Assembly: GCA_048882505.1 (NCBI GenBank)
Contig: JBHLRO010000001.1
Span: 240,001 to 272,000, forward strand
Length of the DNA: 32,000 nucleotides
Source of the DNA: Candidatus Thorarchaeota archaeon
GTDB taxonomy: Archaea > Asgardarchaeota > Heimdallarchaeia > Hodarchaeales > Hodarchaeaceae
Direction: 5' to 3'
A program made the position numbers and the translations under genes. Below are positions 2-23,713 of this stretch, piece by piece; position 1 is the first letter of the stretch; each line of letters starts with the position of its first letter. The notes under the pieces were generated by a model that saw only the letters and a program-made list of their open reading frames with translations, was not told the DNA's origin and ran no database searches.

Positions 2-262
2 TTCACTCTTTTGAAGGAAAATCGAATTGCGGGGGCAGGAATTGATGCATGGTGGGTGTATCCAAAAGACCGGAATCGACCCAAAGATAATTTCCAGAAT
101 TTTCCATTCCACGAGCTTCCAAATGTCGTAATGACTCCTCATTTGGCTAACAAGACTCCAGATCGGATCAAAATTTCTCTGCGTGATACCATCGAAAATA
201 TTCTTCGTGTCTCGAGAAATAGACCTCCAATAAATCAGCTTAATTTGGAACTTGGATATTAA
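2..262 (+). CDS. D-isomer-specific 2-hydroxyacid dehydrogenase, C-terminal part (5' truncated by window edge)
   Basis: Frame is open from base 2 (FTLLKENRIAGAGIDAWWVYP...NVVMTPHLA). It matches the 'L..g.IaGAgiDV' and 'NV.MTPH' (catalytic His) motifs of the family. Confidence 0.85.
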   Translation, partial: FTLLKENRIAGAGIDAWWVYPKDRNRPKDNFQNFPFHELPNVVMTPHLANKTPDRIKISLRDTIENILRVSRNRPPINQLNLELGY

Positions 263-405
263 TGTGATATGAAATTGAAACGAAGGTGTTACATCAAGAT
301 GATTGAACCTTTGCTCTTGGATAAGGTATAAAAGAAACTTCAAGAACACGAATGAAGAAGGGGAATATCTCTCCTTGACTCGGGTGAGATGGCTGTTGAT
401 ACCAT

Positions 406-858
406 CTAGATATTCAATTGGGGATTCTCTTTGAATACTCTGGCGATTACATGTGTATTTGTTCTTTCGACACCGTCTATGTTCATAATTCTTCTCAAAA
501 TTCCATTGAATTCGTCTCTATCTTTTGCACGTGCGAGAATAAAGTAATCCACCGCCCCTAGGGCCCAATAAACCGCCCATACTCCATTTATTCGTGCAAT
601 TTGAGAACCTAAATCCTCAAAGCTGGGTCCATGTTTAGCGTATACTTGTATTATTGCATGAAAATCCATATGGAGCTTGATCGGATTTAAAATTGCTGAA
701 TATCCCTTGATTATACTCTCTTTTTCCAAACGTTTTACTCGATAATGAATAGTCGAGACTGGAGAACCGACCGAGTCGGCTAGCTCATGCAAGGAATGTC
801 TGCAGTCATTTTGAAGCTCTCTTAGAATTTTAAAATCTAGAACATCGAGTTTGGTCAT
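406..858 (-). CDS. Lrp/AsnC family transcriptional regulator
   Basis: N-terminal 'LDVLDFKILRELQNDCR.SL.ELA..VG...STIHYRVKRLEKE.IIKGY' HTH, followed by a C-terminal RAM domain ('G..DY...', 'GVERTNT'). Confidence 0.93.
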   Translation of the reverse strand: MTKLDVLDFKILRELQNDCRHSLHELADSVGSPVSTIHYRVKRLEKESIIKGYSAILNPIKLHMDFHAIIQVYAKHGPSFEDLGSQIARINGVWAVYWALGAVDYFILARAKDRDEFNGILRRIMNIDGVERTNTHVIARVFKENPQLNI

Positions 859-970
859 GTCTGGTTCACGCTCCTTATAAGTCTCCTGCTGATAAACTAT
901 ATCTACGGGTTTAATGAACTTAAAATTTTTATTTTTCTTTGCACACTGGCGTCAGATTTGATAACAAGCA

Positions 971-2308
971 TTAGGACAGATTCGGTGACACATCGTGGAT
1001 AGATTTCGTTTCAAGCATCATTATTGAATGTACGAGTTCCTTCACTTTTCGCTTTGGAATGAATTGTGAACCTGTACGAAGTAAATTCTCTTTTACCGAA
1101 TCAATTGCCAATGAAGGAAATTCGTCACCCTCAATCTTATATTTGCTTCCATTCTTCATTACGATTTCAATTGAGTTTGCGAAGCCTTCCATTTTTTCAT
1201 TGGCTTCGAGGTTGATTTTGGAAGCTATCGCACCGACTCTCCTATCGTGATAGTGATTTACTGTTTGTGGGGAAACGTCCCTATATTTAAGAGCGATAGC
1301 GCCTGCGCATGGCAATGACTTATAGGCTTGGTTCTTATTTACAAACGGCCCTTTATCGGCAATGTTCGTTTTAAGAGGGCCATCGGTAACCCTGGGGCCA
1401 GCAACTATCCGTACACTGTTGATTTCCTCAAAATTTAGATCATTTTGATTTGCTAATTTTACTATATTATTAATGACAGGCAAAATAGTAGTAATCACAC
1501 TGTAGGGCTTCAGAATAACCTTTGTAGTGTCGTAATTTCTTCCCAGATTCTGGGTCAGTTCATCAAGACCCTCCGGATTAACGTCAAGATAAGCCCTGAA
1601 GAATCCCCTATCTCCTTCAAAGGATTTAAGCGCACCGCTGCTACCCTTTCTTGCAATCAGAGCAGCCATCACCCCATTCTGTGCGGCAAGTCCACTTGTA
1701 AAAAGCCACTCCGATGTACCTTCTAACCAACACTGCATCAATCCAGAAGCTAAATTTGTAGCTAACGCTAGAGCATCCATGGTTTCTTCCAAATTCAGCT
1801 TCAAGATTTTGGCTGATGCAGCCGCGGTCCCAATAATCCCATAGATAGTGGTTCCTCTCCAACCACGTGGCCCGCTATAAGGTGCACAAATGTTTCCGAG
1901 CTGTAGATTAACCTCATACCCAGCAGTAATTGAAGTCAAAATATCTTTACCGTGTCTTGATTCTTGCTCTGCTAGAGACAGAACGGCAGGTATAACATGA
2001 GGACCAGGATGCAAACCCTTATAGGTATCTTCTTGTTGAACACTGTGCATCAATACACTGTTAGCAAAGGTAGCACCTAGCACTGACGATTTTTGGTTTT
2101 TTCCTAATATGGTTGAGTAACCACCGGTACCAAATTCCTTTTCCGCTAAGGATATGGCAATCTGTGATTCAGCTTCATTAATCCCGCAATAGCCAGTGTA
2201 CAAATGATGTAGAATCAATTCTTTGACTTTTTTAACTACATTTTGCGGTAGATCTTCATATGATAGAGCAGTTACGAACTTTCCAAGAGTTCTTATAATC
2301 GTGCTCAT
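971..2308 (-). CDS. MmgE/PrpD family protein (paralog 1, divergent)
   Basis: 'L.YEDLP..VV..VK..IL', 'A.FAN....H....EDT...LHPG...IPA.L..AE' and 'FEG..GF' family motifs. Start moved from 2335 to the ATG at 2308, which has a GAGGAG RBS upstream. Confidence 0.88.
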   Translation of the reverse strand: MSTIIRTLGKFVTALSYEDLPQNVVKKVKELILHHLYTGYCGINEAESQIAISLAEKEFGTGGYSTILGKNQKSSVLGATFANSVLMHSVQQEDTYKGLHPGPHVIPAVLSLAEQESRHGKDILTSITAGYEVNLQLGNICAPYSGPRGWRGTTIYGIIGTAAASAKILKLNLEETMDALALATNLASGLMQCWLEGTSEWLFTSGLAAQNGVMAALIARKGSSGALKSFEGDRGFFRAYLDVNPEGLDELTQNLGRNYDTTKVILKPYSVITTILPVINNIVKLANQNDLNFEEINSVRIVAGPRVTDGPLKTNIADKGPFVNKNQAYKSLPCAGAIALKYRDVSPQTVNHYHDRRVGAIASKINLEANEKMEGFANSIEIVMKNGSKYKIEGDEFPSLAIDSVKENLLRTGSQFIPKRKVKELVHSIMMLETKSIHDVSPNLS

Positions 2309-2331
2309 CTGTTTCTCCTCGGTTTCCGTAA

Positions 2332-3117
2332 TCAAACAACGGCCAAGCCATAGGGTTGTGTCAAAGCTCTAATTACCGATCCATATAAAGAAACTAGAGT
2401 ATAATCCCCCGTAACTCCCTTGATAACTGAAGCTCGCCTGATTTCAAGGCTAGCTCCTCCCCCTCTTGCATTAACCAACTGAATGGCATCATCCGAATCA
2501 GGATTCGCAATGAGCTTGGATTTTGTCCGTTCAAATCCTATACATGAAAGGGCTACGACTGCATGGGCATTTACGTTACGCGGAAATTGTGAGCAAGCAC
2601 CCCTTGTAGGCCCCTCATAAAGAACCGTTTCTTCCGTTATGTTTTCTTCAGAAAATTCATCAGTGAAACTAAAATCAATGTTTCGTGGGTGTTTCCAAGT
2701 GGTTACTTCAACTTCAATCAGAGTTTTCCTTGCGTCAAACAATCCATCCATACCAAGCAAGGCGCCATGAGGGATAAAAATCCTGGTTTTGTTTGCCAAG
2801 CTAATCTCAGTAACTGATTCGAGCAGTTTTTGATCAGCGAGCGCGGTAGCGGATAATATCATCATGTTATTCTTTTCTAGTATCAGTGGGGCATAGTCCT
2901 TCACGGCCCCAAAATCAGCCGCTTCTACTATAAGATCCACGGTTTGATTGAAAACATCTTCGGGGGTATCAAGTACAATGGATTTATCTAGCGAGTCAGT
3001 TTTCTCCGCCGAAGGTTCATAGACAAAACTCACTTCAATGTCTTTATTTTCTTGAGCTTTTTCGAAGAGATATGATCCGATTCTTCCAAAACCTACTAAA
3101 CCTATCATTTTTGGCAT
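2332..3117 (-). CDS. Aspartate dehydrogenase-like (NadX/DUF108) NAD(P)-dependent oxidoreductase
   Basis: Rossmann 'IGLVGFGRIG', 'DLIVEAA', 'S..AL.D', 'PHGAL.G.DG' and 'FP.NVN' motifs. Confidence 0.8.
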   Translation of the reverse strand: MPKMIGLVGFGRIGSYLFEKAQENKDIEVSFVYEPSAEKTDSLDKSIVLDTPEDVFNQTVDLIVEAADFGAVKDYAPLILEKNNMMILSATALADQKLLESVTEISLANKTRIFIPHGALLGMDGLFDARKTLIEVEVTTWKHPRNIDFSFTDEFSEENITEETVLYEGPTRGACSQFPRNVNAHAVVALSCIGFERTKSKLIANPDSDDAIQLVNARGGGASLEIRRASVIKGVTGDYTLVSLYGSVIRALTQPYGLAVV

Positions 3118-3138
3118 GGTAAATCACTGTTTATTGGC

Positions 3139-3170
3139 AGGTGTTAATTCTATGGATTATTATTACACCT
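3139..3170. other. Intercistronic stem-loop
   Basis: AGGTGT(T)AAT...ATTACACCT inverted repeat between the aminotransferase and the AspDH-like gene. Confidence 0.35.
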
Positions 3171-3187
3171 TCTGTCTTAAACTTCGT

Positions 3188-4465
3188 TCAACGGAGCGTT
3201 ACTTCTAGTATCTCGATGGCTTTATCAATGTCAGTTTTCTCTGTGATCAATGGGGGGCAAAATCTTAACACATTCTGATAAACACCTGCAGGAAACATGA
3301 GAAGTCCCATCTTAGCCATCTGATCGATTATATTCTTTGTTAGATTCCGTGCGGGCTTTTTTTTATCTTCAACTAGCTCCACACCTATGAGAAGTCCAAG
3401 ACCCCTAATATCACCTATGATCGGATGCGAGTCCTTTATTTCCCGAATTCTTTCTACCAGGTACATACCTGTCTTTCGCACATTATCCAGCAATTCTCGA
3501 CTTTGAATAGCTTCTATATTTGCAAGGCTTGCAGCGCAGGCAGCGGGATTGCCCGAGAAGGTTCCTCCACCTTTAAAATTTTCCATAACCGCTGAATTGC
3601 CAATGATAGCTCCAAGTGAAAGGCCAGAGGCTATTGATTTCGCCAGATAAAGGAAATCCACCTGAGCATTCCAATGTTCGATAGCGAACATCTTTCCAGT
3701 TCGTCCAATACCTGTTGTCACTTCGTCGATCGCCAGTAATATCCCATGATTCCTGCATAAACCAGCGAGACGGTCGAGATATCCATCTGGAAGAGGAATC
3801 ACCCCTCCATGTACCTGAACTGGTTCAATGAAAATAACCGCGACAGATTCAGGCGGAATGACTCTGGTGTCAAACTGATAACTGATAAAATCAAGGCATT
3901 CGAATTCGCAGTCTGGATATGTTTTACCGAACTGGCAACGATAACAATAGGGATACGGGACATGCATGATCCCTGGAACTTCGGAGACACCATATGTTCT
4001 CCCGTGAGGACTAGTATTTAGTGCTAAGGAGCCCAGTGATGTTTGACCATGGAAGCAGCCGAAATAACATATCACCAGAGGTTTTTTCGAATATTGTTTG
4101 GCCATTCTCATTACAAGTTCCGTTGCATCAGAACCTGTGTTACAAAAACCGACCTTTCCATGTGACAGCGTTCCAGGAGCAAGTTTCAGAAGTTTTTCAG
4201 CAAGTTCAATCCTTGTAGGATTCAACGTCCAACTGAATGAAGAGAAACCAGTTCGGTGAAGTTGTTGTTCGACAGCTTCCAAAATTGTTTTGGATCCATG
4301 TCCCAAATTACTGGTTTGTCCACCAGAGGTGAAATCCAGATATTTGTTCCCTTTATTATCTTTGAGATATACCCCATCGCTTTCTGTGATTATCAATGAC
4401 GGAAATCTGTACTTTCTCGCACAAGCTCTTTGATCTCTATCTGTCCAATTTTCGTTGTTTACCAC
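3188..4465 (-). CDS. Class III PLP-dependent aminotransferase (GabT/ArgD/racemase-like)
   Basis: 'YLDFTSG', 'FHGQT', 'FIEPVQ', 'DEVTTGIGRTG', PLP lysine in 'AKSIASG', 'GGTFSGNP' and 'LRFCPPL'. GTG start. Confidence 0.92.
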   Translation of the reverse strand: MVNNENWTDRDQRACARKYRFPSLIITESDGVYLKDNKGNKYLDFTSGGQTSNLGHGSKTILEAVEQQLHRTGFSSFSWTLNPTRIELAEKLLKLAPGTLSHGKVGFCNTGSDATELVMRMAKQYSKKPLVICYFGCFHGQTSLGSLALNTSPHGRTYGVSEVPGIMHVPYPYCYRCQFGKTYPDCEFECLDFISYQFDTRVIPPESVAVIFIEPVQVHGGVIPLPDGYLDRLAGLCRNHGILLAIDEVTTGIGRTGKMFAIEHWNAQVDFLYLAKSIASGLSLGAIIGNSAVMENFKGGGTFSGNPAACAASLANIEAIQSRELLDNVRKTGMYLVERIREIKDSHPIIGDIRGLGLLIGVELVEDKKKPARNLTKNIIDQMAKMGLLMFPAGVYQNVLRFCPPLITEKTDIDKAIEILEVTLR

Positions 4466-4515
4466 TGTTATAACCTAAATTCGCTGATTAACAGTATATA
4501 GGCCCCTCAAGAAGT

Positions 4516-4566
4516 AAAAAAAGAGAAAACCTTCTTCGAGACCTAGAGTCTCTCCGAAGGGTTTCC
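4516..4566 (-). terminator. Hairpin plus U-tract after the solute-binding protein gene
   Basis: The minus strand reads GAAACC-CTTCG-GA-GAGAC-TCTAG-GTCTC-GAAG-AA-GGTTTTC followed by TCTTTTTTT, about 10 nt after the stop at 4577. Confidence 0.6.
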
Positions 4567-4576
4567 AAAGAAGGAT

Positions 4577-6187: not shown

Positions 6188-6219
6188 TAGAATATCTCCA
6201 AAAAGAGACCTAACATCTA

Positions 6220-6388: not shown

Positions 6389-7396
6389 ATGGGGTTTTAT
6401 CGTTATTTTGCGCTCAGATTGCTTTCTATGATAGCCATTGTATTTATATTACTTACGTTTATATTTTTTGCAATTCACATTCTACCTGGAGACCCTGTTG
6501 AAGCTTTGGTGGGCGAAAGCGCTAGTCAGGAATTCATCGAAAACCTGAGACATGATCTTGGCTTGGATAAACCCCTTCATGAGCAATATTGGGATTATAT
6601 AACCGGGATAATTACTGGAAATCTAGGTAGATCAATAATACTTCGAAATAGCGTTGCAAACTTGATCTGGGAACGTGCTGGCGTGACCATTCAATTAGCA
6701 GTAATGGCATGGATAGTATCGGTGTTTCTAGGAATTGCAGTGGGGCGATTTTCCGCATATAAAGAAGGAAAAGTAGAAGATCATGTCGTTCGATCCACAA
6801 CGTTATTTATGTATGCCATTCCAGTTTACGTACTTGGAATAGCATTCCAGTTGATTTTCGGGGTTTATCTCGATATTTTACCAATCTTTGGTACTAATAG
6901 TCCCTATGTTAGGCCCCCTAAGGTCACTGGCATGATTTTAATTGATACACTTCTTGCGGGAGATTTCCCAGGATTCGGAGATGCTGTTCTACACTTTGTC
7001 CTTCCGGTAATGTCTCTTTCAGCTTATTATATCGCGGTGACTGTTAGAATTACCCGCTCAGAAACAATTAAGGCGCAAAAAAGGACCTATTGTCTGCTTG
7101 CCCAAGCAAAGGGATTAGATAAGAAGGAAATTACCAATAAACATGCCTTCAGAAATGCCCTTCTCCCTGTTGTCACAATCATTGGCCTGCAAGCGGGAAC
7201 GTTACTCACGGGCTCGATTTTAGTAGAAACTGTATTTTCATTACGGGGATTAGGAAATCTGATCTGGATATCAGCATCTCAACGCGACTATATTCTTACA
7301 CAAGGCGTCGTTACCATTTTTGTGGTTATTACATCGGTCATCGGGCTCATTATCGATACTTCTTACTATTTTCTTGATCCAAGGGTAAGGTACTAA
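6389..7396 (+). CDS. dppB: Peptide/nickel ABC transporter permease (DppB/OppB)
   Basis: 'LPGDPV', 'LGLDKPL..QY..Y....G.LG.S', EAA loop 'A.AKGL...I..KHAFRNALLPVVT', 'VETVF...GLG' and 'DPRVR'. Confidence 0.93.
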   Translation: MGFYRYFALRLLSMIAIVFILLTFIFFAIHILPGDPVEALVGESASQEFIENLRHDLGLDKPLHEQYWDYITGIITGNLGRSIILRNSVANLIWERAGVTIQLAVMAWIVSVFLGIAVGRFSAYKEGKVEDHVVRSTTLFMYAIPVYVLGIAFQLIFGVYLDILPIFGTNSPYVRPPKVTGMILIDTLLAGDFPGFGDAVLHFVLPVMSLSAYYIAVTVRITRSETIKAQKRTYCLLAQAKGLDKKEITNKHAFRNALLPVVTIIGLQAGTLLTGSILVETVFSLRGLGNLIWISASQRDYILTQGVVTIFVVITSVIGLIIDTSYYFLDPRVRY

Positions 7397-7397
7397 A

Positions 7398-8303
7398 ATG
7401 GACAACAGTCTGGATCAAAGCCAGAAACCTGGTGGTGGGATCCGAAGGCTACTTATGGGTAGTCGAGTCTGGGATCTTTCTCGAAACGACCGAATCTCAT
7501 TCTTTATCGGCTTGGGGATAGTGTCTGTGATTATTTTTGTAACAATATTTGCTGATTTTATTACCCCGTTTTCACCTTTTGAAATACATGTAGAAGACCT
7601 GCATCTCGCACCCGGAATCTCATTCAAGTATTTATTAGGGACAGATTCTCTAGGAAGAGACGTACTCAGCAGACTGATACATGGAGCACGGGTCTCTCTG
7701 CTGGTGGGACTATCTTCAGTTATAATTGCCTCAGTTATAGGATCGTTTCTCGGAGTTCTTGCTGGCTATTATGGTGGATCCCTGGACAGACTAGTTACTT
7801 TACCCATGGATGCCCTATATTCTTTTCCAGCTTTTTTGACTGCTTTGTTGATTGTGGCCAGCTTAGGTACCAGTATGTTTTATCTTTCCCTTGCGGTAGC
7901 ATTCGGATTATTACCTAAAATCTATCGAACGGTCAGAAGCGCAGCTGTTGCTATCAAGGAGGAAGAATTTGTAGAAGCGGAAGTTTCACTTGGGGCCCGG
8001 GATAGTTACATTGTTTTTTATCATGTTTTTCCGCTATGTATCAATGTCTTGGTGGTAGTAATGACAATTAGTATTGCAACAGCGATCTTGAGTATCGCGG
8101 GATTGGGATTTTTAGGGTTGGGTGTACCAACTCCAACTCCCGAATGGGGAACTGATTTAGCCGCAGGACGTCCTAATATTCTTTCAGGGGTTTGGTGGAC
8201 CACCATGATTCCTGCGATCTTGATTTTTTTTACCGTTCTTGGATTCAACCTGGTAGGTGAAGGTATGAACAAGATCTTTGGGTCATCATTAGAGGAGATT
8301 TAG
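7398..8303 (+). CDS. dppC: Peptide/nickel ABC transporter permease (DppC/OppC)
   Basis: 'LLGTD.LGRDVLSRLIHGARVSL', EAA loop 'EEFVEA..SLGA', 'GLGFLGLG...P.PEWG' and 'FNLVGEG'. Confidence 0.93.
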   Translation: MDNSLDQSQKPGGGIRRLLMGSRVWDLSRNDRISFFIGLGIVSVIIFVTIFADFITPFSPFEIHVEDLHLAPGISFKYLLGTDSLGRDVLSRLIHGARVSLLVGLSSVIIASVIGSFLGVLAGYYGGSLDRLVTLPMDALYSFPAFLTALLIVASLGTSMFYLSLAVAFGLLPKIYRTVRSAAVAIKEEEFVEAEVSLGARDSYIVFYHVFPLCINVLVVVMTISIATAILSIAGLGFLGLGVPTPTPEWGTDLAAGRPNILSGVWWTTMIPAILIFFTVLGFNLVGEGMNKIFGSSLEEI

Positions 8304-8307
8304 AATC

Positions 8308-9276
8308 ATGTCAGATCTCCTCTCAGTTAATGATCTAAGAACCAGATATTTCACGGCTTCAGGGACGGTAAAAGCCGTAGATAGGTGTTCAATTAAATTA
8401 CAGAGAGGAGAAACACTGGGAATAGCAGGGGAATCTGGGTGTGGTAAATCTACTTTTGCGATGTCGATTCTAAGGTTGATTCAACCCCCTCACAAAATAA
8501 TCGAGGGGTCGGTAATATACAAAGGAATCGATATACTTAAGTTGACCGAGAAGGAGTTCCGAAAAATCAGGTGGGAGGAGATTTCATTAGTTTTGCAACA
8601 ATCGATGAACGCCTTGAATCCGATGCTCAGGATTTCAGATCAAATGATTGAACCGCTCATGATAAAGAGGATTACCTCTAAGGAGTCAGCGGAAGTCAAA
8701 GCCAGGAAGCTGCTAGAACTTGTAGGAATTAAGCCGGATCGTATTAACAATTATCCCCACGAATTCAGCGGAGGAATGAAACAAAGAGCGTTAATAGCTT
8801 TGTCATTGATTGCTGATCCAGAAATCCTCATATTGGATGAACCAACAACTGCTCTTGATGTAGTAGTTCAACACATGATACTTAAACTCATTAACGATCT
8901 TAAGAATGAAATGGGGTTATCTGTTATTTGGATAACTCACGACCTAGCGGTTTTGGCTGAAGTGTGCGATACTATTGCAATAATGTACGCTGGAAGAATT
9001 ATGGAAACTGGCACGGCAGAAGAACTCATCCTAAATCCCCAACATCCCTATACAAAAGGTCTTCTCGCTTCTTTCCCGACCATTGACCAGGTAGACAAGG
9101 AATTAGTATCAATCCCAGGCAGTCCACCGAATCTAATCAATCCACCGAAAGGTTGCCCATTCCATCCCCGTTGTAGCTCTGCAACTGATCTTTGTAAAAG
9201 AGAGCGGCCGATAGGTGAGACACTTCCAGATCGCGTTGATGGATATATAGAATGCCATAATTGGAAGGAAATTTGA
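8308..9276 (+). CDS. dppD: Peptide ABC transporter ATP-binding protein (DppD/OppD)
   Basis: Walker A GESGCGKS, signature FSGGMKQR, Walker B 'LILDEPTTALD', H-loop ITHD, and a C-terminal 'GCPFHPRC...C...C' Fe-S/oligopeptide domain. Confidence 0.94.
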   Translation: MSDLLSVNDLRTRYFTASGTVKAVDRCSIKLQRGETLGIAGESGCGKSTFAMSILRLIQPPHKIIEGSVIYKGIDILKLTEKEFRKIRWEEISLVLQQSMNALNPMLRISDQMIEPLMIKRITSKESAEVKARKLLELVGIKPDRINNYPHEFSGGMKQRALIALSLIADPEILILDEPTTALDVVVQHMILKLINDLKNEMGLSVIWITHDLAVLAEVCDTIAIMYAGRIMETGTAEELILNPQHPYTKGLLASFPTIDQVDKELVSIPGSPPNLINPPKGCPFHPRCSSATDLCKRERPIGETLPDRVDGYIECHNWKEI

Positions 9277-9279
9277 GCT

Positions 9280-10308
9280 ATGGTTAATAATGCGTCAGAA
9301 ACTCCTATTGTGGAAGCTAAGAATTTAAAAAAGTGGTTTACCTTAAAAAAAGGAATAAGCTCAACCTTTGGCATGTCCCAGGAGATAAAAATCCGAGCGG
9401 TAGATGGAGTCGACTTGCAAGTCCTTGACGGAGAAGTTTTCGGGATTGTGGGAGAGAGCGGATGCGGGAAAACTACATTGGGGAAGTTGTTAATCCGTCT
9501 CCTTGAACCTACTGATGGCCTCCTCAGTTTTAGGGGAACAGAGATCACCCACCTTTCGATGAAAGAAATGAGGAAATTTAGGAGAGAAATGCAGATAATC
9601 TATCAGGATCCGTTTAGCAGCTTACCTGTAAGATTTAAGGTAAGTAGGATCCTAACGGAACCCTTTCAAATTCACAAATTAATTTCTAGCAAGGCTGATG
9701 GTATTGAAAGAGCTTCTGAATTGCTAGAAGATGTTGGTCTAGTACCAACCGATGTATTTCTGGAAAAGTATCCCAACGAACTTAGCGGGGGTCAGCGCCA
9801 AAGAGTGGGTATTGCGAGGGCTATCGCCCTGAAACCAAAGTTCATTCTAGCAGATGAACCTGTATCAATGCTTGACCTCTCGGTTAGGGCCGAAATTCTT
9901 AATTTGATTCTTAAATTGAAAAAGGATTATGGACTTACTTTACTCCTTATAACCCACGATTTAGCCAGTGCGCAATTCATGTGCAACAGGGTTGCCATTA
10001 TGTATGTAGGGAAGATTGTGGAAGTGGGATCTGGAGATGAAATATTCAGCAAACCTTACCATCCGTATACGATGCTGCTGAAAGCCGCCCTACCCACACT
10101 TGACCCACGAACTAAGCATCACCTTTCGCAGCTTCCAACAGAGGAGGAAATTGCTAATCCTATTGATCTCCCACCAGGTTGTAGATTCCATCCGCGATGT
10201 ATTTATGCGCAAGATTTTTGTAAACGCAACGAACCAGAACTAAGAACGTATTTAGATAGAGAGGTTGCATGCCATGCCATAGGCGATTGGCTGCAACCAG
10301 AGGACTAA
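9280..10308 (+). CDS. dppF: Peptide ABC transporter ATP-binding protein (DppF/OppF)
   Basis: Walker A GESGCGKT, 'YQDPFSSL', LSGGQRQR, 'ADEPVSMLD' and C-terminal 'GCRFHPRC...C...VACH'. Confidence 0.94.
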   Translation: MVNNASETPIVEAKNLKKWFTLKKGISSTFGMSQEIKIRAVDGVDLQVLDGEVFGIVGESGCGKTTLGKLLIRLLEPTDGLLSFRGTEITHLSMKEMRKFRREMQIIYQDPFSSLPVRFKVSRILTEPFQIHKLISSKADGIERASELLEDVGLVPTDVFLEKYPNELSGGQRQRVGIARAIALKPKFILADEPVSMLDLSVRAEILNLILKLKKDYGLTLLLITHDLASAQFMCNRVAIMYVGKIVEVGSGDEIFSKPYHPYTMLLKAALPTLDPRTKHHLSQLPTEEEIANPIDLPPGCRFHPRCIYAQDFCKRNEPELRTYLDREVACHAIGDWLQPED

Positions 10309-14842: not shown

Positions 14843-15679
14843 TCATTCCACCTTGTATACACAGGCTAGATGCCTAACACACTGTGGGCATTGACCGTTA
14901 CATTCTGGCAAGCTTCCTGGAAGGCCGCTAGTTTGGGCTCCTTTGATATCCATCAGAATGCGAAAGATTTTTTCAGTTTCATCTTCTGAACCCTCAACGA
15001 CCAGTGTGGTTGCACCCTCCGCGCCCTCAATCCCTCCGGACGCGATTACAGTAGCCTTAACATCCGCAAGGGATATAATCGCCTCTTTTTCAGTTACAAC
15101 CTCACCGATTAAAGGGATTAATCCAACCGCTGCACCCATGGATTTATGGATTGAAATCCGACCCGATGCTTGCACTGCCTCTTTTATCGTCCCAGGTATA
15201 AGCTTCTCTAAACCGACTGCGATTATAACTTTACAGCCCTGAGAGGAAAAACCTGCCATCGCTTTCCCTGGATTATGTCCTAAAGGTGCTGCGGCCATCA
15301 TTGCCACGTTTCCATGGCTATCCAAAGCGTTAGCGCCAACAATGATTATATCCTCAGCTTGAAGATTAGCGGTCACCTTCTCTATATCCTTATCAATGTC
15401 CATTATTTCGTTCTTCTCCAAAAGAACGCAGTGAGGATGTTTCTGTCTTTCTAGGGCATTCATTGTTCCCCTTGGGGAAATTCGTCCTCCAATTCTCAAC
15501 GATTGACCAGCTAGTTGTTCAGAAATTGTCGAAACAGTTGTTCCTCCCTTTAGTAGCACTTTACCGTTAGCAAGCGCATATTTTACATCAGCTCTGGAAA
15601 CAATTGCTCTTGCAATGACCTGCTTGGCCTCTGATACAGTTAAAGTTACCTGGACTTTCATACCTGGATTAACTCTCAA
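14843..15679 (-). CDS. Conserved hypothetical protein (RpiA/CoA-transferase-like alpha/beta core inferred) with a C-terminal C-x3-C-x2-C-x5-C tail
   Basis: 'LTVSEAK..IA.AI', 'GGTT', 'GANA.D..GN' and 'VGLEKLIP' motifs, ending in 'CNGQCPQCVRHLAC'. An alternative ATG start lies at 15661. Confidence 0.6.
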   Translation of the reverse strand: MRVNPGMKVQVTLTVSEAKQVIARAIVSRADVKYALANGKVLLKGGTTVSTISEQLAGQSLRIGGRISPRGTMNALERQKHPHCVLLEKNEIMDIDKDIEKVTANLQAEDIIIVGANALDSHGNVAMMAAAPLGHNPGKAMAGFSSQGCKVIIAVGLEKLIPGTIKEAVQASGRISIHKSMGAAVGLIPLIGEVVTEKEAIISLADVKATVIASGGIEGAEGATTLVVEGSEDETEKIFRILMDIKGAQTSGLPGSLPECNGQCPQCVRHLACVYKVE

Positions 15680-15686
15680 ATCTTAA

Positions 15687-18124: not shown

Positions 18125-18147
18125 ACACCTTCTGACTAAACTCGACA

Positions 18148-18157
18148 TTTATATATA
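18148..18157 (-). promoter_or_regulatory. TATA box of the leftward operon (18124 to 11983)
   Basis: The minus strand reads TATATATAAA 24-33 nt upstream of the ATG at 18124, within a roughly 110-bp divergent intergenic region. Confidence 0.5.
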
Positions 18158-18233
18158 CTATGTGATTCTTTGGAAACTGTTGATAATATTACAAGCAAAC
18201 TGGGAAAACATACGAAATTATCGGTGATACTTG

Positions 18234-19304
18234 ATGGATTATGCGAACAGCATGCTTGAAGTGATAGGAAATACCCCATTACTTAAACTCAATCGGATAG
18301 GTAAGGATTTGAAGGCGAACATCTTTGTTAAACTGGAACATCTAAATCCTAGCGGAAGCTATAAGGACAGAATGGCTTTGGCCATGGTTGAAGCCGCTGA
18401 AAGGGGTGAAACCTGGAACGGCAAGAAATTAAAACCTGGAGGTACCGTTTGTGATGCATCTGCTGGAAATACTGCTCCTGCTCTTGCATTTGTTTGTGCA
18501 ATGAAGGGATATAAGATAAAATTATGTTCTTACGCTCATTTTCTGCATTCAGAAGATAAGAGTAAAAGCGCCAGATTAAAAATCAGCTCCTCCTTCGGTG
18601 CTGACCATTATCCCTGTCCTCTTCCGAATGATAACATTCTGGATCAATTTGATGATGAGAAGGCAAGGAGATATGCGGTAATTATAGGCGGAAAACACCA
18701 CATGTATGAGATGGAGAAAGAAGATCCAGAAACCGTTTGGGTCGATCAGATATACAATGATGCGAACACAAAAGGACAGATGAGTATGGGAGAGGAAATA
18801 TACAAGCAACTTGACGGAAAAATCGATGCTTGGGGGGCATCGATTGGGTCAGGAGCGACTTTCCTAGGAGTTGCGACCGCTCTTAAAGGACACGCAGTAG
18901 AACCATACACATTCGGAGTTGTACCAGATGAGGGAACAAGCCTTGTTGATATTAGCGCAGGTATCATGGATAGCTCCTCAATGGGGCGCCCCCCATTACG
19001 AATGAAAATCGTGGAAATGTTTGGATTACATAAATGGATCACCGAGGATTCCATTGTCGAAAAACTATACAAAGCGGGATATCCAGACGAATGGTTTGGT
19101 GTAACACAAGAAGATGCCAGGGCGATGGCCCACAGGCTTTGTAAGGAAGAGGGAATATATTGCGGAATGTCATCTGGAGCCAATGTTTATGCCGCGTTAA
19201 AAGTAGCAGAAAGAATGGATCCAGGAAGCAATATAGTTACAGTTATAGTGGATCGTCGCGATAGGTATATGGACGAATTCCCAGAAGAAAAATACGTTGT
19301 TTGA
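18234..19304 (+). CDS. Cysteine synthase/CBS-like PLP-dependent enzyme (fold type II)
   Basis: 'IGNTPL..L', 'KLE..NPSGSYKDR' (PLP Lys), 'GSGAT..G' and 'EEGI..G.SSGAN..AA'. The ATG at 18234 follows a GGTGAT RBS. Confidence 0.88.
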   Translation: MDYANSMLEVIGNTPLLKLNRIGKDLKANIFVKLEHLNPSGSYKDRMALAMVEAAERGETWNGKKLKPGGTVCDASAGNTAPALAFVCAMKGYKIKLCSYAHFLHSEDKSKSARLKISSSFGADHYPCPLPNDNILDQFDDEKARRYAVIIGGKHHMYEMEKEDPETVWVDQIYNDANTKGQMSMGEEIYKQLDGKIDAWGASIGSGATFLGVATALKGHAVEPYTFGVVPDEGTSLVDISAGIMDSSSMGRPPLRMKIVEMFGLHKWITEDSIVEKLYKAGYPDEWFGVTQEDARAMAHRLCKEEGIYCGMSSGANVYAALKVAERMDPGSNIVTVIVDRRDRYMDEFPEEKYVV

Positions 19305-19335
19305 ATAACAATCAGGAAAAACGGAGATACATATA

Positions 19336-20505
19336 ATGCCAATAAACATGGATAGAGCAAAAGAATTAATGCAAAAGAATGAACTTGACGCCATATTAGC
19401 TTCTTCCCCAGAAAATTTCTTCTATGCCACCGACTTGTACATCCCTTTTGTCGATCGTTTTCGTGGATTCACTAGTGGCTTCGGGCAGTTTGCACTGATT
19501 CCATTTGAAGGAAATCCAACAATGTGTGTTACAGAACTAGATGCCGATTTAGCAAAAGAAACCGGGCGGATAGAGGATCAGAGGTTTACCAAGACGTGGG
19601 CATATTTCAATAGGGAAGAAGCGGGAAAAATACATACTTACCCCGAAACTGTTTCGGCCCTAGTTGATGTATTAAATGAAAAGGGGTTAACCGACGCCAA
19701 GATTGGATTTGAAGAGAAAGTGCTTCCAATTGCTGACTATAATCGCATAACAAAAGAACTACCGAAAGTTAGGTTTAAAGATGCCTCAAACCTGTTTCTT
19801 CAGGTAAGGGCTGTTAAAATTCAGGAGGAAATCAATCGGATGAGGCGAGCAGCTGAAATTTCAGTACAAGCTTTTGAGGCTGCCTTTGGTGTGGCTCGAG
19901 AAGGTGCCACAGAATCAGAATTCATGGGTGCATTTCAGCAGGAACTCATCAATCAAGATGGATATATCCACAAAGGATTAATTCATTGGAACTTGACTAC
20001 TGGTGTCCATTCTGCAACAGTAAGACGTGGGTGGCCACTTGATCATAAATTGCAGAAAGGGGACGTGATGAGATTTGACGGAGGCGCCATCTACAAAGGA
20101 TACCGTTGTGATATGGCTCGGGCCCGTATACTCGGATCTGCAACTGAAAAAGTAAAAAAGCTCTATCAGGCTCTTTGGAAGGCCGAGGAGACAATGATCA
20201 GCATGATCAAACCTGGGGTTCGTTTCTCAGACCTGTTTAAGGCTGGAATGAAAATTGTAAGAGGAACAGCTGATCCAAATTTCGAAAGAAAGCACTTGGG
20301 TCATGGTTTGGGCCTCATAACTGAGGAAGAACCCGTTATCGGGCCAAAAAACAGTTCATTCCTAGAAGAAAATATGGTTCTGTCCGTGGAAGTACCATAT
20401 TACTGGACCGGGGTTGGAGGATTCAACGTTGAAGATGTAGTACTGGTTACTTCTCATGGACATGAGATTCTTACTGCAGGATCCCCGAAGGACTTGGAAA
20501 TTTGA
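19336..20505 (+). CDS. Xaa-Pro peptidase (M24B, creatinase/prolidase N-domain)
   Basis: All five metal ligands are present: FDGG, RCDM, GHGLG, VEVP and VEDVV. Also 'R.VK..EEI..MR.AA.I'. Confidence 0.9.
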   Translation: MPINMDRAKELMQKNELDAILASSPENFFYATDLYIPFVDRFRGFTSGFGQFALIPFEGNPTMCVTELDADLAKETGRIEDQRFTKTWAYFNREEAGKIHTYPETVSALVDVLNEKGLTDAKIGFEEKVLPIADYNRITKELPKVRFKDASNLFLQVRAVKIQEEINRMRRAAEISVQAFEAAFGVAREGATESEFMGAFQQELINQDGYIHKGLIHWNLTTGVHSATVRRGWPLDHKLQKGDVMRFDGGAIYKGYRCDMARARILGSATEKVKKLYQALWKAEETMISMIKPGVRFSDLFKAGMKIVRGTADPNFERKHLGHGLGLITEEEPVIGPKNSSFLEENMVLSVEVPYYWTGVGGFNVEDVVLVTSHGHEILTAGSPKDLEI

Positions 20506-20510
20506 TATAG

Positions 20511-20921
20511 GTGATAAATATGAAATACGAAAGCAACTTCATCAAACCCAAAGTCAGCGAGGAAATTCCCCATCATGATAGCGCCGAAATGGAAAAAATC
20601 GGAGCCAATATGGTTTTACTTGACGATTCGTTGTTTTCCGGGGCAGGAGTCCGGATGACAACCAGGATTGTCCGAGGAGTGGTCGATGAACCAGAGGAGT
20701 ATGTAGAACTTCATACTCACGAAGTTGATCAAGTTTTCATCTATTTTGGCGAAGCTGACAATGAAAATTCATTAGAAGTGGAATTCAGATTTGAAGAAGA
20801 AGTTTATCGTATCAAATCCCCAACAACAGTATTTGTACCTAAAGGTGTTCCACACACTCAGAAGATCATTCGCGGGTCAGGGAGATATATTACACTTCTC
20901 AAAAAGGGAAAATATATCTAA
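20511..20921 (+). CDS. Cupin-domain protein
   Basis: 'HTHEVDQVFIYFG' and 'VFVPKGVPH' cupin motifs 1 and 2. Confidence 0.75.
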   Translation: MINMKYESNFIKPKVSEEIPHHDSAEMEKIGANMVLLDDSLFSGAGVRMTTRIVRGVVDEPEEYVELHTHEVDQVFIYFGEADNENSLEVEFRFEEEVYRIKSPTTVFVPKGVPHTQKIIRGSGRYITLLKKGKYI

Positions 20922-20970
20922 GCAGTAAGATCTGAGAAGTTAAACTCTATTTCCTAGCCAGACATGGTTT

Positions 20971-22398
20971 TCATCGGTTGTACTCATAAATTAAGGTACT
21001 GATCACTTTTTCATATTCCGCCAAACCTGAGACTGGGTATTTTCCTTTGATTACTGCGAACTCGTTTGGTCCATGGCTATGTCCTCCGAACCCTACACAT
21101 CCTGTGGAGAAAGGTAACTCAAGGGGAGGTTGATTGAATAACGATATTGGAATCGTAGCCAAAGAACTTGGCCAGACCTGGTACTTGATATTGTTGAGTT
21201 CATAGGAACGTATTAATGCCTGAGCAATATCACTCTCGATTCCTGTGTGACAATAATCGACAGCAGCGAGCTTTTGAACCTTAATGTCTGAAAAACCGTG
21301 TTTGATAAGATGCTGTCTAATGAGATCGAAAATACTCTCTGCCTTTTGATTGGGAATTAATCTAACCTCGATTTTTGCTTTTGCGTTGGAAGGAATAACT
21401 GCCTCTGGGCCTGGACCTGTGTAACCGCCCCATATTCCATCGATATTGATTTGGGCTGTTGAAAAAAGAAGATCTAAGGCTTTAAGGGGCGAATTTATAT
21501 CGGATAATAAATTTCCTACCCCCAATCCTTTCATGTAGGCATTTAAATCAAAGTTCTCTGCAAGGTTTTTCATCCCTTCCAAGAAATCCTTTGGCCGGGG
21601 TTCAATCTCATTGGAGAATCCCTCAATTATGACGTTATTCCCGTCTTTATCCGTCATGGAAACCAAGGCATTGATTAGATGCCATATTGGATTTTCCACG
21701 ACTGGTCTGTGCATGCTGTGAATTTCATGGTCGCTTGGCCCTCGCCCCCAGATCTTGCCAGACGCTTCTAATTCTAAGTATAATATACCTTTGTATCCTA
21801 GCTGAACTCTAGCTACCCCTTGCGCATTTTGTGAGGAAAAAGGCATATATAGGGCATCAGCTTGTTTCAACCATTCCCTGTTTGCATTTATGAAGTCAGA
21901 AAGATGAGGACTAAACATTTCTTCCTCACCATCAAAGACTACAAGCAGATTCAAAGGTAGATCGCCGTGGATTCGTTTTACGGAGTCAATAGCGTTCAGT
22001 ATACCAGAGATTTTCATTTTGTTGTTTACACCCCTTCCCACCAAGCAAGTACCGATTTTTGGTTTCTCAATTGATATTGCTTCGTATGGAGGATAACTCC
22101 AATCTGATTCCTCAACTGGATTCGAGTCATAGGCACCATATAACATCAGTGTCTTTTTGCTTTCGGGATTACTTGGACGCAATTCCCCAAACACGATTGG
22201 ATTTACGTCCTCGGCATATAGATCTACCCTTTGAAATCCGAGCTCGCGCATCCAATCCTGAATCAGGCCTGCGCATTTTTTTGTCCCGTAGCTGTTCACA
22301 GAAACACTGGGTTGTTTCACAAGATCTCGGAGTTTATCGATGTGCTTATCGATGCTTCTATCAATGAATTTCAGAACCTCATTTACCTTGATGTTCAT
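20971..22398 (-). CDS. M20/M25/M40 (ArgE/DapE-like) metallo-hydrolase with altered metal ligands
   Basis: 'GEEE..S', 'GYKG....EL', 'NIDGI.GGYTG.G...VIP..A.AK...RL.P.Q' and 'H.PNE'. ATG start at 22398 (ORF track uses the TTG at 22407). Confidence 0.88.
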   Translation of the reverse strand: MNIKVNEVLKFIDRSIDKHIDKLRDLVKQPSVSVNSYGTKKCAGLIQDWMRELGFQRVDLYAEDVNPIVFGELRPSNPESKKTLMLYGAYDSNPVEESDWSYPPYEAISIEKPKIGTCLVGRGVNNKMKISGILNAIDSVKRIHGDLPLNLLVVFDGEEEMFSPHLSDFINANREWLKQADALYMPFSSQNAQGVARVQLGYKGILYLELEASGKIWGRGPSDHEIHSMHRPVVENPIWHLINALVSMTDKDGNNVIIEGFSNEIEPRPKDFLEGMKNLAENFDLNAYMKGLGVGNLLSDINSPLKALDLLFSTAQINIDGIWGGYTGPGPEAVIPSNAKAKIEVRLIPNQKAESIFDLIRQHLIKHGFSDIKVQKLAAVDYCHTGIESDIAQALIRSYELNNIKYQVWPSSLATIPISLFNQPPLELPFSTGCVGFGGHSHGPNEFAVIKGKYPVSGLAEYEKVISTLIYEYNR

Positions 22399-22519
22399 TT
22401 TAACCAACCACGATCAAGTACAATTAGCAGAATATTTGTTACTTTCCATTTCGAGATAGAAATACATATCACGAAGAGAATTAAAATCAAGCATAATGTG
22501 TTAAACGCATAATCTCCAT

Positions 22520-23713
22520 TTAACTCTCATTCATGTTTTGAACATTCTTCTGAATGAAATTCACAAGTATTAAAGGAAAAACCATCAATAATGATGCCAA
22601 TTTAAAGAGATCAGGAATCGATACCGTTGTTGCCAATAATCCTCCCAAAACTGCTCCAATTCCCGAGCCAATGTTAAAGATTGTGGAAATGTATGCGGCA
22701 GTTACCTTTCTTGCATCCGGAGGAGAATGCTTCGCTAGCAAATTCCATTCGGAAACAACTCTTAAACCCAGTGAAGAACCAAAGATTACCATTACGATGG
22801 CTAAGGGGATGAATTCCGTCAATTCAGAAATCAGGTAATAGGCAAATGCGAGTATGCCAAAGGCGGTGAAAATGACGACTCTGTCATCTACAACATCCAC
22901 AAATTTCCCAACAGGAATTCTAAAACTCATATCTGTGGCACCCCTCACGCCAAGAAGTAAAGCTATTAGAGCTGGACTAAAGAGTAGAATATCCTCAGCA
23001 TAGAGAACGAAATATATAACAAAGAATCCATAGGTAACCGCGAAGGATAAACGTAAAAACGTCAATATTATTAGATTTCGTGAATTAGCAATGTGATTTA
23101 GAGATGAAATCAGGTTTCTTGATTTATTAGCTGCTGATCGATCCAGTTGTGTCATATTCTTTGAAACCATAAGAGGAATGAGACCGAAAATAGGAATGAG
23201 AGCAGCAACTTGAAACACTTGCGAGTAGGACATTAGGGTTAATAGAGATGAACAAAAAAATGGGCCTATGGTTATTGCTACTCCGTAAGAGGTAAGAAAT
23301 ATACCTAAGGTTTCGCCGGTTTTCCCAATGGGGGCGAATTCCTGCGTTTTTCCGATCGCGAGCGGAACAATAGCTGCGATCGAAACTGCGTGTAGTACCC
23401 TCAATGGGTAAAACCAAATAATCGATGGCAGAAGGGAATAAGAAAGTTGGCAAAAACTCTGTACTAGCGCTGATGTCGCTAATACGAATTTTGCACTTAC
23501 ACGTTCAGAGAGGAACCCGAGCGGAATCTTAAACAGCATCAAAGAAAAGGATAAAAGGCCAATTATCACACCCACCTCGAAAGTTGACGCTCCTTTGTTT
23601 GTAACGTACAACGGCAGTATTGGAACCGTGGTTTCAAACGCAAGGAAAACCGTAATAGACGAAAAAATTAGAATATAGAATTCTCGGGGATACTTGCCTT
23701 TTATCGCAGACAT
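22520..23713 (-). CDS. MFS transporter
   Basis: About 12 hydrophobic segments with MFS motif A variants 'G.LSERVS.K' and 'G..VD.VDDR'. Confidence 0.9.
   Translation of the reverse strand: MSAIKGKYPREFYILIFSSITVFLAFETTVPILPLYVTNKGASTFEVGVIIGLLSFSLMLFKIPLGFLSERVSAKFVLATSALVQSFCQLSYSLLPSIIWFYPLRVLHAVSIAAIVPLAIGKTQEFAPIGKTGETLGIFLTSYGVAITIGPFFCSSLLTLMSYSQVFQVAALIPIFGLIPLMVSKNMTQLDRSAANKSRNLISSLNHIANSRNLIILTFLRLSFAVTYGFFVIYFVLYAEDILLFSPALIALLLGVRGATDMSFRIPVGKFVDVVDDRVVIFTAFGILAFAYYLISELTEFIPLAIVMVIFGSSLGLRVVSEWNLLAKHSPPDARKVTAAYISTIFNIGSGIGAVLGGLLATTVSIPDLFKLASLLMVFPLILVNFIQKNVQNMNES

Follow-up and report, generated by a model that had tools for sequence, protein, structure and literature searches.

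Several described systems combine protein types like those encoded between positions 406 and 23713 of the DNA analysed here, a window of 32,000 nucleotides (positions 240,001 to 272,000 of contig JBHLRO010000001.1, assembly GCA_048882505.1) from a Candidatus Thorarchaeota archaeon that is placed in the Hodarchaeaceae by its GTDB lineage. Ectoine and hydroxyectoine degradation (DoeA, DoeB, DoeD, DoeC, DoeX; EutABC) shares with this gene island the M24, AstE/AspA, class-III fold, Lrp/AsnC and PALP protein types. Murein-tripeptide recycling (MppA-OppBCDF, MpaA, LdcA, YcjG, PepD) has in common with it a family-5 substrate-binding protein (SBP) with OppBCDF, an MpaA-related zinc-amidase fold and epimerase or racemase functions. 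The staphylopine cnt operon (CntKLM, CntABCDF, CntE) likewise contains a racemase, an NAD(P) dehydrogenase, a family-5 ATP-binding cassette (ABC) importer and a major facilitator superfamily (MFS) transporter. The second of two MmgE/PrpD paralogs in the island (PrpD2) is nearest to cis-aconitate decarboxylase (CAD, IRG1) and to iminodisuccinate (IDS) epimerase, which acts with a C-N lyase in iminodisuccinate degradation. Finally, two of the island's protein families recur in a bacterial operon, the closest counterpart of which among characterised systems is lysine 5,6-aminomutase KamDE and its reactivase.

Judged by family models, the island falls outside each of these characterised systems and appears to act as a regulon for the catabolism of a specific substrate, equipped with an ABC importer of its own. 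Its scores lie far under the equivalog cut-offs for ectoine enzymes (82.5 against 402.7 for DoeB; 78.9 and 83.6 against 613 and 575 for DoeA), the region 406-23713 has neither the aldehyde dehydrogenase DoeC nor a cyclodeaminase-type EutC, it holds many extra genes, and its import system is of the Opp type, whereas ectoine enters cells through Ehu or TRAP systems. Ectoine degradation was rejected on these scores and on the missing DoeC and EutC. The model of the murein amidase MpaA reaches just 16.8 against 157, there is no S66 LdcA and no enolase-type epimerase in the island, and nothing in this analysis links the SBP to muropeptides. Matches of PrpD2 to IDS epimerase and CAD have E-values of merely 1e-30 to 7e-37, and a C-N lyase partner is missing from the island. 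For the cnt operon, CntA scores 77.2 against 800 and CntE 17.9 against 235, Pfam and NCBIfam placed none of the island proteins in a CntL or CntM family, and the richness of the island in hydrolases suggests breakdown.

Co-inheritance of 22 genes across Asgard archaea

The island comprises 22 genes, from an Lrp/AsnC-type regulator to an MFS transporter, as given by the listing of open reading frames (ORFs) with Pfam and NCBIfam scans (Table 1). Despite inversions and reshuffling, the set has stayed together in several Asgard lineages (Heimdall/Hodarch and Thor). We searched 301 Asgard genomes with four markers, the AspDH-like, DUF6917, 278-aa and SelA-like genes. DUF6917 was detected in 12 of the 301 genomes, island-type SelA-like genes (at least 59% identity) in 10, island-type 278-aa genes (at least 62%) in 9, and island-type AspDH-like genes (at least 54%) in 8; AspDH-like orthologs at this level are confined to island-bearing genomes. 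All four markers coincide in 8 of the 301 (G000, the host genome of the window, and G016, G064, G132, G157, G167, G191 and G249), a count that overstates statistical independence, the genomes being mutually related. A ninth genome, G259, has fragmentary contigs and three of the four markers, AspDH-like being the missing one. Wherever both ends share one contig, the markers span 15-27 kb. With these queries the island was not found in about 290 of the 301 genomes, absence from a metagenome-assembled genome (MAG) being understood as non-detection in those searched. In the genus to which the window belongs, DUF6917 occurs in 2 of the 22 genomes searched, the window's genome counted.

The full gene order is kept at locus L010 (~96% identity) and at L005/L012, L006 and L026 (51-85% identity). 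On the Hodarchaeales contig L021 the second half (M19 through SelA-like, then PALP-M24-139aa-MFS-M20) has moved whole across the Lrp gene. Thor-type and other loci (L011, L014, L015/L017) are reshuffled with DUF6917 duplicated, the set remaining within ~25 kb. At L015/L017, which is Thorarchaeota contig JAWOEX010000032.1 (the same as G064:C22), DUF6917 is present twice, the copies lying 13.7 kb from each other; this locus also has three C45 paralogs, the highest number in Thor-type loci, and its importer is on the opposite side. Among named records, a 'Candidatus Heimdallarchaeota' MAG comes nearest (~96% protein identity), followed by Hodarchaeales MAGs (62-79%).

Chance falls far short of explaining this arrangement, since other genomes carry the same gene set as a unit; conservation through several distinct rearrangements is a stronger argument than the co-occurrence counts. 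Identities of 50-70% between lineages argue against confinement to one recently transferred fragment. In the host assembly (4.3 Mb, 94.6% complete) the island's GC content of 41.9%, compared with 41.1% for the genome, falls at the 81st percentile of 23-kb windows, and by this comparison composition gives no sign of recent transfer. An empty insertion site could not be defined, as the flanking HerA and PCI genes are ~300 kb apart in the closed congener G009 and lie on different contigs in other congeners. Public sequencing runs containing the stretch were few, all of them DNA metagenomes, perhaps including its source, and no RNA run among them. The claim of a self-contained island is strongly supported by the co-localised markers and by the survival of the set through rearrangement. 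The neighbourhood check proposed with it, in which scattered homologs would have spoken against an island, was run and returned the AspDH-like, DUF6917, 278-aa and SelA-like genes from the same genomes, an outcome that the island withstands.

The genes form five transcription blocks of 5 (leftward), 6 (rightward), 6 (leftward), 3 (rightward) and 2 (leftward) genes. They consist of SBP5, class-III PLP (pyridoxal phosphate) enzyme, AspDH-like, PrpD1 and Lrp; OppB, OppC, OppD, OppF, DUF6917 and C45; SelA-like, AstE/AspA, 278-aa protein, TIGR04076, PrpD2 and M19; PALP, M24 and the 136-aa protein; and MFS and M20. Gaps within blocks are mostly 1-112 nt, and there are two overlaps, of 4 nt between PrpD1 and AspDH-like and of up to 19 nt between AstE and SelA-like. 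At the left edge, a minus-strand ORF at 2-349 is part of a 134-aa frame and overlaps the end of a plus-strand ORF of at least 256 aa that enters at the window start (G000:C1:239231 onward). It has no family match and is not adjacent to Lrp in any related locus; on these grounds we place it outside the island, which hence starts at 406, and it is probably not a gene. The stretch that holds it is the ~1.6 kb between NurA and Lrp.

Almost all families named in the original prediction, which had been made from the sequence alone, were borne out by Pfam and NCBIfam. Its count of 22 genes holds, with the left edge moved from 2 to 406, and five transcription blocks replace the four divergent or convergent ones it described. 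Pfam supports the single family-5 ABC importer, the MFS transporter, the two MmgE/PrpD paralogs and the Lrp/AsnC regulator, and three PLP enzymes of three types are indeed present: a class-III fold enzyme, a weakly matching SelA/DgaE-like one and a CysK-like PALP. Five amide-hydrolase families had been proposed; the folds are right for all of them, the catalytic residues are in place in C45, AstE/AspA and M24, and most of the metal ligands are lost in M19 and M20. The two supposed NAD(P) oxidoreductases reduce to the AspDH-like protein, the 278-aa protein having an eIF2B/RpiA-like fold with no Rossmann signature. The proposed cupin has an HxH...PxGxxH pattern, seen by eye, and no match in Pfam or NCBIfam.

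Table 1. Genes of the island with window positions, strand and family evidence (bit scores; cut-offs after 'vs').
Product	Position	Strand	Family match or feature
Lrp/AsnC-type regulator	406..858	-	HTH_AsnC + AsnC_trans_reg; end gene of the leftward SBP operon
MmgE/PrpD paralog 1 (PrpD1), 454 aa	971..2335	-	MmgE_PrpD_N 180 bits; C domain under cut-off
AspDH-like NAD(P) dehydrogenase, 261 aa	2332..3117	-	Asp_DH_C 63.6 bits vs 27; NAD_binding_3
Class-III aminotransferase-fold PLP enzyme, 425 aa	3188..4465	-	Aminotran_3 322 bits
Family-5 SBP, 536 aa	4577..6187	-	SBP_bac_5 247 bits
OppB, OppC, OppD, OppF (2 permeases, 2 ATPases)	6389..10308	+	BPD_transp_1 x2; ABC_tran + oligo_HPY x2; gaps 1-4 nt
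DUF6917 small beta-barrel protein, 158 aa	10333..10809	+	PF21891 103 bits
C45 Ntn (N-terminal nucleophile)-type autoproteolytic hydrolase/acyltransferase, 362 aa	10836..11924	+	NF040521 192.4 bits vs 85; Pfam AAT
M19-fold protein, degenerate metal site, 359 aa	11983..13062	-	Peptidase_M19 294 bits
MmgE/PrpD paralog 2 (PrpD2), 449 aa	13111..14460	-	N and C domains above cut-off
TIGR04076 small protein, 110 aa	14473..14805	-	TIGR04076 50.6 bits vs 33; Cys34, Cys56, His86, Cys88 conserved
278-aa protein, unnamed family	14843..15679	-	eIF2B/RpiA-like fold; C-terminal C..C..H..C motif
AstE/AspA-family zinc deacylase, 332 aa	15687..16685	-	AstE_AspA_cat 77.8 bits vs 25
SelA/DgaE-like fold-type-I PLP enzyme, ~485-493 aa	16667..18148	-	weak TIGR01437 match, 1.3e-9; first gene of leftward operon
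CysK/CysM/CBS-like fold-type-II PLP enzyme, 357 aa	18231..19304	+	PALP 195 bits
M24 metallohydrolase (Creatinase_N + M24), 389 aa	19336..20505	+	Pfam
136-aa protein, possible cupin	20511..20921	+	HxH...PxGxxH pattern by eye
M20-fold protein, degenerate metal site, 478 aa	20971..22407	-	M20_dimer above cut-off; Peptidase_M20 19.9 vs 24.6
MFS transporter, 397 aa	22520..23713	-	MFS_1 105 bits

Bacterial relatives of the DUF6917, SelA-like and 278-aa proteins

DUF6917 and the SelA-like enzyme form an almost obligate pair in anaerobic bacteria. Homologs of the enzyme number more than 1000, those of Bacillota and Treponema being 54-57% identical to it, and Asgard and bacterial DUF6917 proteins are 32-36% identical. 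Our bacterial sample consisted of three contigs (L018-L020) and 77 bacterial-type metagenome loci (L028-L104). DUF6917 was found in 66 of the 77 loci, in 61 of them no more than 700 nt upstream of the SelA-like gene. Of the 11 loci that lack it, ten break off within 1.5 kb of that gene on its upstream side; hence 66 of 67 informative loci are paired. The sole informative locus without DUF6917 (L057:10001-11437) has the SelA-like gene followed by a family-5 SBP and OppBCDF, in the fashion of the Asgard island. The usual order of this operon, which belongs to anaerobic Bacillota and Spirochaetota, is DUF6917, (RidA), SelA-like, (flavoprotein), (465-aa protein), a ~80-aa protein, a ~600-aa B12 mutase-like protein with an N-terminal KamE/OraE-like B12-binding domain, and a KamB-like reactivase. 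RidA is present in 29 of the 77 loci, and the recurrent neighbours are FCD (21 loci) and GntR (13) regulators, a DAPDH_C-type dehydrogenase (15) and an Orn/DAP/Arg decarboxylase (7). In Treponema (L020) the operon adjoins the cell-wall recycling genes NagZ, NamZ, LdcA and M14. The bacterial DAPDH_C-type dehydrogenase was considered as a counterpart of the island's AspDH-like protein and rejected, their common part being the Rossmann motif alone.

The same two families co-occur in the Asgard island, in a different setting. The bacterial genes are adjacent, whereas the Asgard ones are 5.9 kb apart in different operons. Unlike the bacterial operon, the island showed no sign of a B12-binding mutase-like protein, KamB-like reactivase, RidA or flavoprotein, and the neighbours of its pair are an Opp importer, PrpD paralogs and amidases, which are absent around the bacterial operon, L057 excepted. 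The Pfam and NCBIfam scans placed none of the island ORFs in a B12-binding or KamB family. In the host genome as a whole only generic corrinoid-domain matches (26-28% identity over ~100-140 residues) were detected, and the KamB model gave no match there, a control search with the same model being equally empty.

On the SelA-like tree the Asgard island copies make up one clade (support 100/100) on a long stem, in a polytomy with bacterial clades. This fits a single acquisition by, or an origin within, Asgard archaea. Far outside this clade lies a genus paralog, on contig C28 of the host genome, which is 42% identical to the island protein, common in the genus and unlinked to the island; its gene context yields no functional hint. 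About 1 kb upstream of this paralog, an 820-aa radical-SAM protein is split by a LAGLIDADG intein (L105:5907-8369). The SelA-like protein itself is a distant relative of the SelA/DgaE family and scores outside it (37.4 against 385.3 for TIGR01437; 29.3 against 600 for DgaE). The Lys of its YSMDK motif is invariant, and a PDB sequence search returned no match.

The DUF6917 protein keeps an HxPNHxN motif from Asgard archaea to bacteria. Its AlphaFold2 (AF2) model has a pLDDT of 93; Foldseek against the PDB came back empty, and the best VIA hits (Z 4.4) are barrels of the EF-Tu-domain-2 type, from which no function can be read.

The 278-aa protein, whose start is likely Met7, has no Pfam match, no PDB sequence match and no Rossmann signature. 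Its AF2 model (pLDDT 91) aligns with VIA Z of 8.4-9.4 over 137-157 residues to eIF2B subunits, ribose-1,5-bisphosphate isomerase and RpiA, the last with a Foldseek probability of 0.99. Its modelled fold is not that of a Rossmann oxidoreductase. The family counts 634 cluster representatives, chiefly bacterial, and is fused to AroM in P0139 and P0157; a distant paralog (27-41% identity) occurs in 105 of the 301 Asgard genomes, unlinked to the island. Bacterial clusters with this family (L025, L107, L108) feature AroM fusion or adjacency, an Asp/Glu-racemase-family gene, DUF1177, an OPT or ECF transporter and a PucR regulator, with S-Me-THD (DUF917) present except in L108 and sometimes an M20 gene. 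They are a further orphan peptide or amino-acid-derivative cluster. From such comparisons, the island appears to merge modules from different bacterial orphan catabolic clusters, all centred on amino acids or peptides. We found no papers on DUF6917, incidental mentions of TIGR04076, DUF917/DUF1177 and KamB, and none on the island.

Other island proteins and their surroundings

The hydrolase-fold proteins divide into those with intact and those with degenerate sites. For M24, AstE and M20, roles of ligand and catalytic residues are taken by us from general family knowledge. The C45 protein qualifies as a family member, its Cys105 is invariant across 10 orthologs, and self-cleavage is predicted from the family model together with this residue. 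In the AstE/AspA-family protein, which qualifies as a zinc deacylase, H61-x-x-E64, H149 and E207 are invariant in 8 sequences; its top NCBIfam match, DoeB (2.6e-23), is well below cut-off. The M24 protein, whose nearest solved relatives are Xaa-Pro dipeptidases (3e-33), carries D248, D259, H322, E352 and E365 at the prolidase-like spacings of 11/63/30/13, against 11/64/29/14 in Pyrococcus prolidase. By motif and spacing these residues would be its metal ligands.

Compared with Sco3058, the M19-fold protein has Gln for the bridging Glu, Ala for the substrate His and Asn for the second beta-site His. The motif equivalent to HxD reads I-C-D, the first His having become Ile, against H-S-H in six paralogs on contig C6 of the host genome, and the remaining His is Gln in 7 of 7 orthologs. 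These ligand substitutions are invariant across the 7 orthologs, and despite its matching fold the protein does not qualify as a membrane dipeptidase. Similarly, relative to Sso-CP2 (9e-49) the M20-fold protein shows His to Ala, bridging Asp to Asn and Glu to Pro changes, invariant in 4 orthologs, with the EE pair and the last His retained; it does not qualify as a dinuclear metallopeptidase. Both proteins are conserved yet appear not to be classical metallodipeptidases. The loss of the M19 metal site removes the argument from L-Xaa-D-Xaa cleavage and undermines the suggestion that this protein is a dipeptidase of that kind.

A second locus of the host genome, on contig C6 at 78299-96838 (L109:4299 to L110:3838), starts with an Lrp/AsnC gene and a polysaccharide-deacetylase-like gene. 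A minus-strand series 328aa-PrpD(477 aa)-OppBCFD-SBP5 there faces the six tandem M19 paralogs and an MFS gene. At the metal-ligand positions these paralogs, unlike the island M19, retain the candidate ligands HxH, E, H, H and D. The association of PrpD, M19-fold genes and an Opp system is thus repeated within the same genome.

All five proteins of the importer score above Pfam cut-offs, as befits an Opp/Dpp-type system, and OppBCDF orthologs are 62-79% identical across all related loci; the host genome carries further Opp systems. Among solved structures the SBP is nearest to HbpA (5e-36), GsiB/YliB (1e-32), AgaA (1e-29) and DppA (3e-29), and NCBIfam ranks GsiB above DppA, then NikA, with CntA far behind. 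HbpA, GsiB and DppA bind glutathione and di- or tripeptides. The MFS protein has weak matches to rhizoferrin and staphylopine exporters; its gene is inherited together with M20 in L021 and L026, where PALP-M24-139aa-MFS-M20 share one strand. An Lrp ortholog stands at the matching position in L004, L005, L006, L010 and L021.

Among solved structures, the class-III enzyme best matches Ala/Ser racemase (4e-77), Ile 2-epimerase, amino-acid amide racemase and ACL racemase, with GABA (gamma-aminobutyric acid) aminotransferases behind. Since it does not reach the racemase equivalogs (289.6 against 800 for LeuMetRace; 270.7 against 639 for the Ala/Ser racemase family), it is a candidate racemase or epimerase, which is a lead and not a membership. 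The AspDH-like protein is below cut-off for all AspDH equivalog models (best 136.5 against 267), failing as an L-aspartate dehydrogenase (NadX), and is best described as a divergent member of the AspDH fold. The CysK-like enzyme matches CysM (1e-39) and CBS (6e-33) in the PDB and also the SbnA family (6.5e-39); it has Lys44 within SYKDR and an ASAGNTA loop, and its orthologs are 83-85% identical. The two PrpD proteins share 28% identity. PrpD2 matches CAD at 7e-37 and IDS epimerase at 1e-30, and 2-methylcitrate dehydratase at just 2e-6.

The 136-aa protein is conserved downstream of M24 in L006, L010, L021 and L026. For TIGR04076, a word-based homolog search returned Asgard-type relatives alone. 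A 65%-identical TIGR04076 gene lies outside any island (L111:10001-10336), between a Liv-type ABC importer and an Amidohydro_1 gene, in surroundings that include CN_hydrolase, isochorismatase, cupin and cyclase genes; the family may have an accessory role in such amide-breakdown gene clusters generally.

On its right-hand side the island is followed, at window positions 23768-30206, by a PCI-domain protein and a stretch of lower GC content (37-38%) with an N6 DNA methylase, an MBL-fold gene and two N6_N4 methylase genes. This looks like a variable restriction-modification region.

Proposed function and rival explanations

With moderate confidence, and from sequence comparison, we read 406-23713 as one co-inherited catabolic set of a Heimdall-group archaeon that would import and dismantle a small carboxylate-rich peptide or N-acylated amino acid with at least one non-standard residue (D-configured, diamino or branched-dicarboxylic). 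The GsiB/DppA-like SBP and OppBCDF would import the compound, and the MFS protein would move either the compound or a product. Amide bonds would be opened by the C45 Ntn hydrolase, the AstE/AspA-type zinc deacylase and the M24 hydrolase. Because they have lost their ligands yet remain under purifying selection, the M19- and M20-fold proteins would have a role other than classical dipeptide hydrolysis, for example binding or a different chemistry. Stereocentres could be inverted by the class-III PLP enzyme, which falls in a racemase-rich clade, and perhaps also by the two IDS-epimerase/CAD-like MmgE/PrpD proteins; alternatively, the latter might decarboxylate or dehydrate a polycarboxylate product. 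The SelA/DgaE-like PLP enzyme with DUF6917 may carry out a deamination of the beta-eliminating lyase type, and the frequent presence of RidA with this pair in bacteria is the reason for suggesting an elimination with an enamine or imine product. Further nitrogen, or sulfur, could be removed by the CysK-like PLP enzyme and the AspDH-like dehydrogenase, and Lrp would sense an amino-acid product and switch the set on.

Several points weigh against this reading. Every family-level match to a named function is far under its curated cut-off. No thiolase, aldehyde dehydrogenase or CoA-linked step that could complete a pathway is present in the island, which must place downstream metabolism outside it. 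Of the five supposed hydrolases, two are probably something else, which makes the number of amide bonds cut uncertain. The lead of racemases over GABA aminotransferases among relatives of the class-III enzyme is modest (263 against 217 bits). Finally, as the B12 mutase-like and KamB-like partners of the bacterial pair were not found in the island, the step catalysed by the pair may differ between the two domains.

The island might instead serve the catabolism of an N-linked aminopolycarboxylate, opine or carboxylate metallophore, imported by the SBP possibly in metal-bound form, epimerised or decarboxylated by the PrpD proteins and cleaved oxidatively at the C-N bond by the AspDH-like enzyme. 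We regard this as unlikely, though it accounts for the two MmgE/PrpD paralogs, of which PrpD2, the better conserved, is nearest to CAD and IDS epimerase, and for a PrpD gene again lying beside an Opp system at the C6 locus. It would also accommodate opine-binding AgaA and NikA/CntA-type models among the SBP matches, the weak MFS matches to rhizoferrin and staphylopine exporters, and the SbnA match of the CysK-like enzyme. However, the SBP scores higher with HbpA, GsiB and DppA, the CntA and CntE scores given above are far under cut-off, and no fumarase/aspartase-type C-N lyase, FAD opine oxidase or opine dehydrogenase was assigned in the island by Pfam or NCBIfam; nor would such a pathway need five amidase folds and a racemase-clade PLP enzyme. 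A cnt-like system for making, exporting and taking up again a small metallophore would draw on the racemase-like PLP enzyme, the NAD(P) dehydrogenase, the SbnA-like PALP, the family-5 importer and the MFS protein, all of them present, but five hydrolase folds suggest breakdown. In addition, no nicotianamine-synthase-like protein, NIS (non-ribosomal peptide synthetase (NRPS)-independent siderophore) synthetase, ATP-grasp or NRPS ligase was assigned and no energy-using bond-forming step is evident. The bacterial DUF6917/SelA-like relatives, moreover, have RidA and FCD/GntR regulators as neighbours, a typical feature of catabolic operons. We hold this biosynthetic explanation to be very unlikely.

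Little credence goes to general oligopeptide scavenging, in which an ordinary Opp system and assorted peptidases would process common L-peptides of detrital protein. An SBP nearest to dipeptide and glutathione binders, an M24 protein nearest to Xaa-Pro dipeptidases and an Lrp-type regulator would all suit such a function, but a set as rare and patchy as this one (DUF6917 in 12 of the 301 Asgard genomes and 2 of the 22 of its own genus) is unlike a housekeeping peptide system. It also includes conserved uncharacterised families and two ligand-less pseudo-peptidases, and the host genome possesses other Opp systems. That unrelated operons were juxtaposed by chance seems extremely improbable. Five separately oriented transcription blocks would agree with it, as would the Hodarchaeales contig L003, on which the Lrp-to-C45 half stands alone, followed by unrelated genes. 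Yet in a second Hodarchaeales assembly (L004/L021) the first-half genes are identical and the second half is found across Lrp, and the markers co-localise almost perfectly in 8-9 genomes from at least three lineages despite rearrangement.

For the substrate, the 'unknown amino-acid/peptide derivative' of the original prediction is still the right level of claim. Of the two readings offered there, D-amino-acid-containing or cross-linked peptides and aminopolycarboxylates, our comparisons slightly favour the former. It gains support because the relatives of the class-III enzyme are racemases and epimerases and the SBP is nearest to HbpA, GsiB and DppA, because bacterial 278-aa relatives adjoin Asp/Glu-racemase-family genes and peptide transporters, and because the bacterial DUF6917/SelA-like operon often has a diaminopimelate-dehydrogenase-like gene. 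A bolder and rather unlikely version would be a B12-independent archaeal route acting on bacterial cell-wall debris, with import of peptidoglycan stem peptides or of similar peptides containing D- or diamino acids, stripping by C45, AstE and M24, inversion of D-centres and diaminopimelate-type deamination by a two-component PLP enzyme made of the SelA-like protein and DUF6917. On the same reading, anaerobic bacteria would use the same pair plus an undescribed B12 mutase.

If true, this cell-wall route would reveal what an orphan operon widespread among bacteria acts on, and would assign to Asgard archaea a defined niche as consumers of necromass. Sediment Asgard archaea are thought to live on detrital organic matter, and to our knowledge few defined substrate-specific systems are known for them. 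The island provides a co-inherited unit of 22 genes with sharp limits, to which both an importer and a regulator belong. It joins six poorly known families in one context: DUF6917, the SelA-like PLP enzyme, TIGR04076, the eIF2B/RpiA-fold family, and the ligand-less M19 and M20 proteins. A substrate solved either in the Asgard island or in the bacterial B12/PLP operon should illuminate the other.

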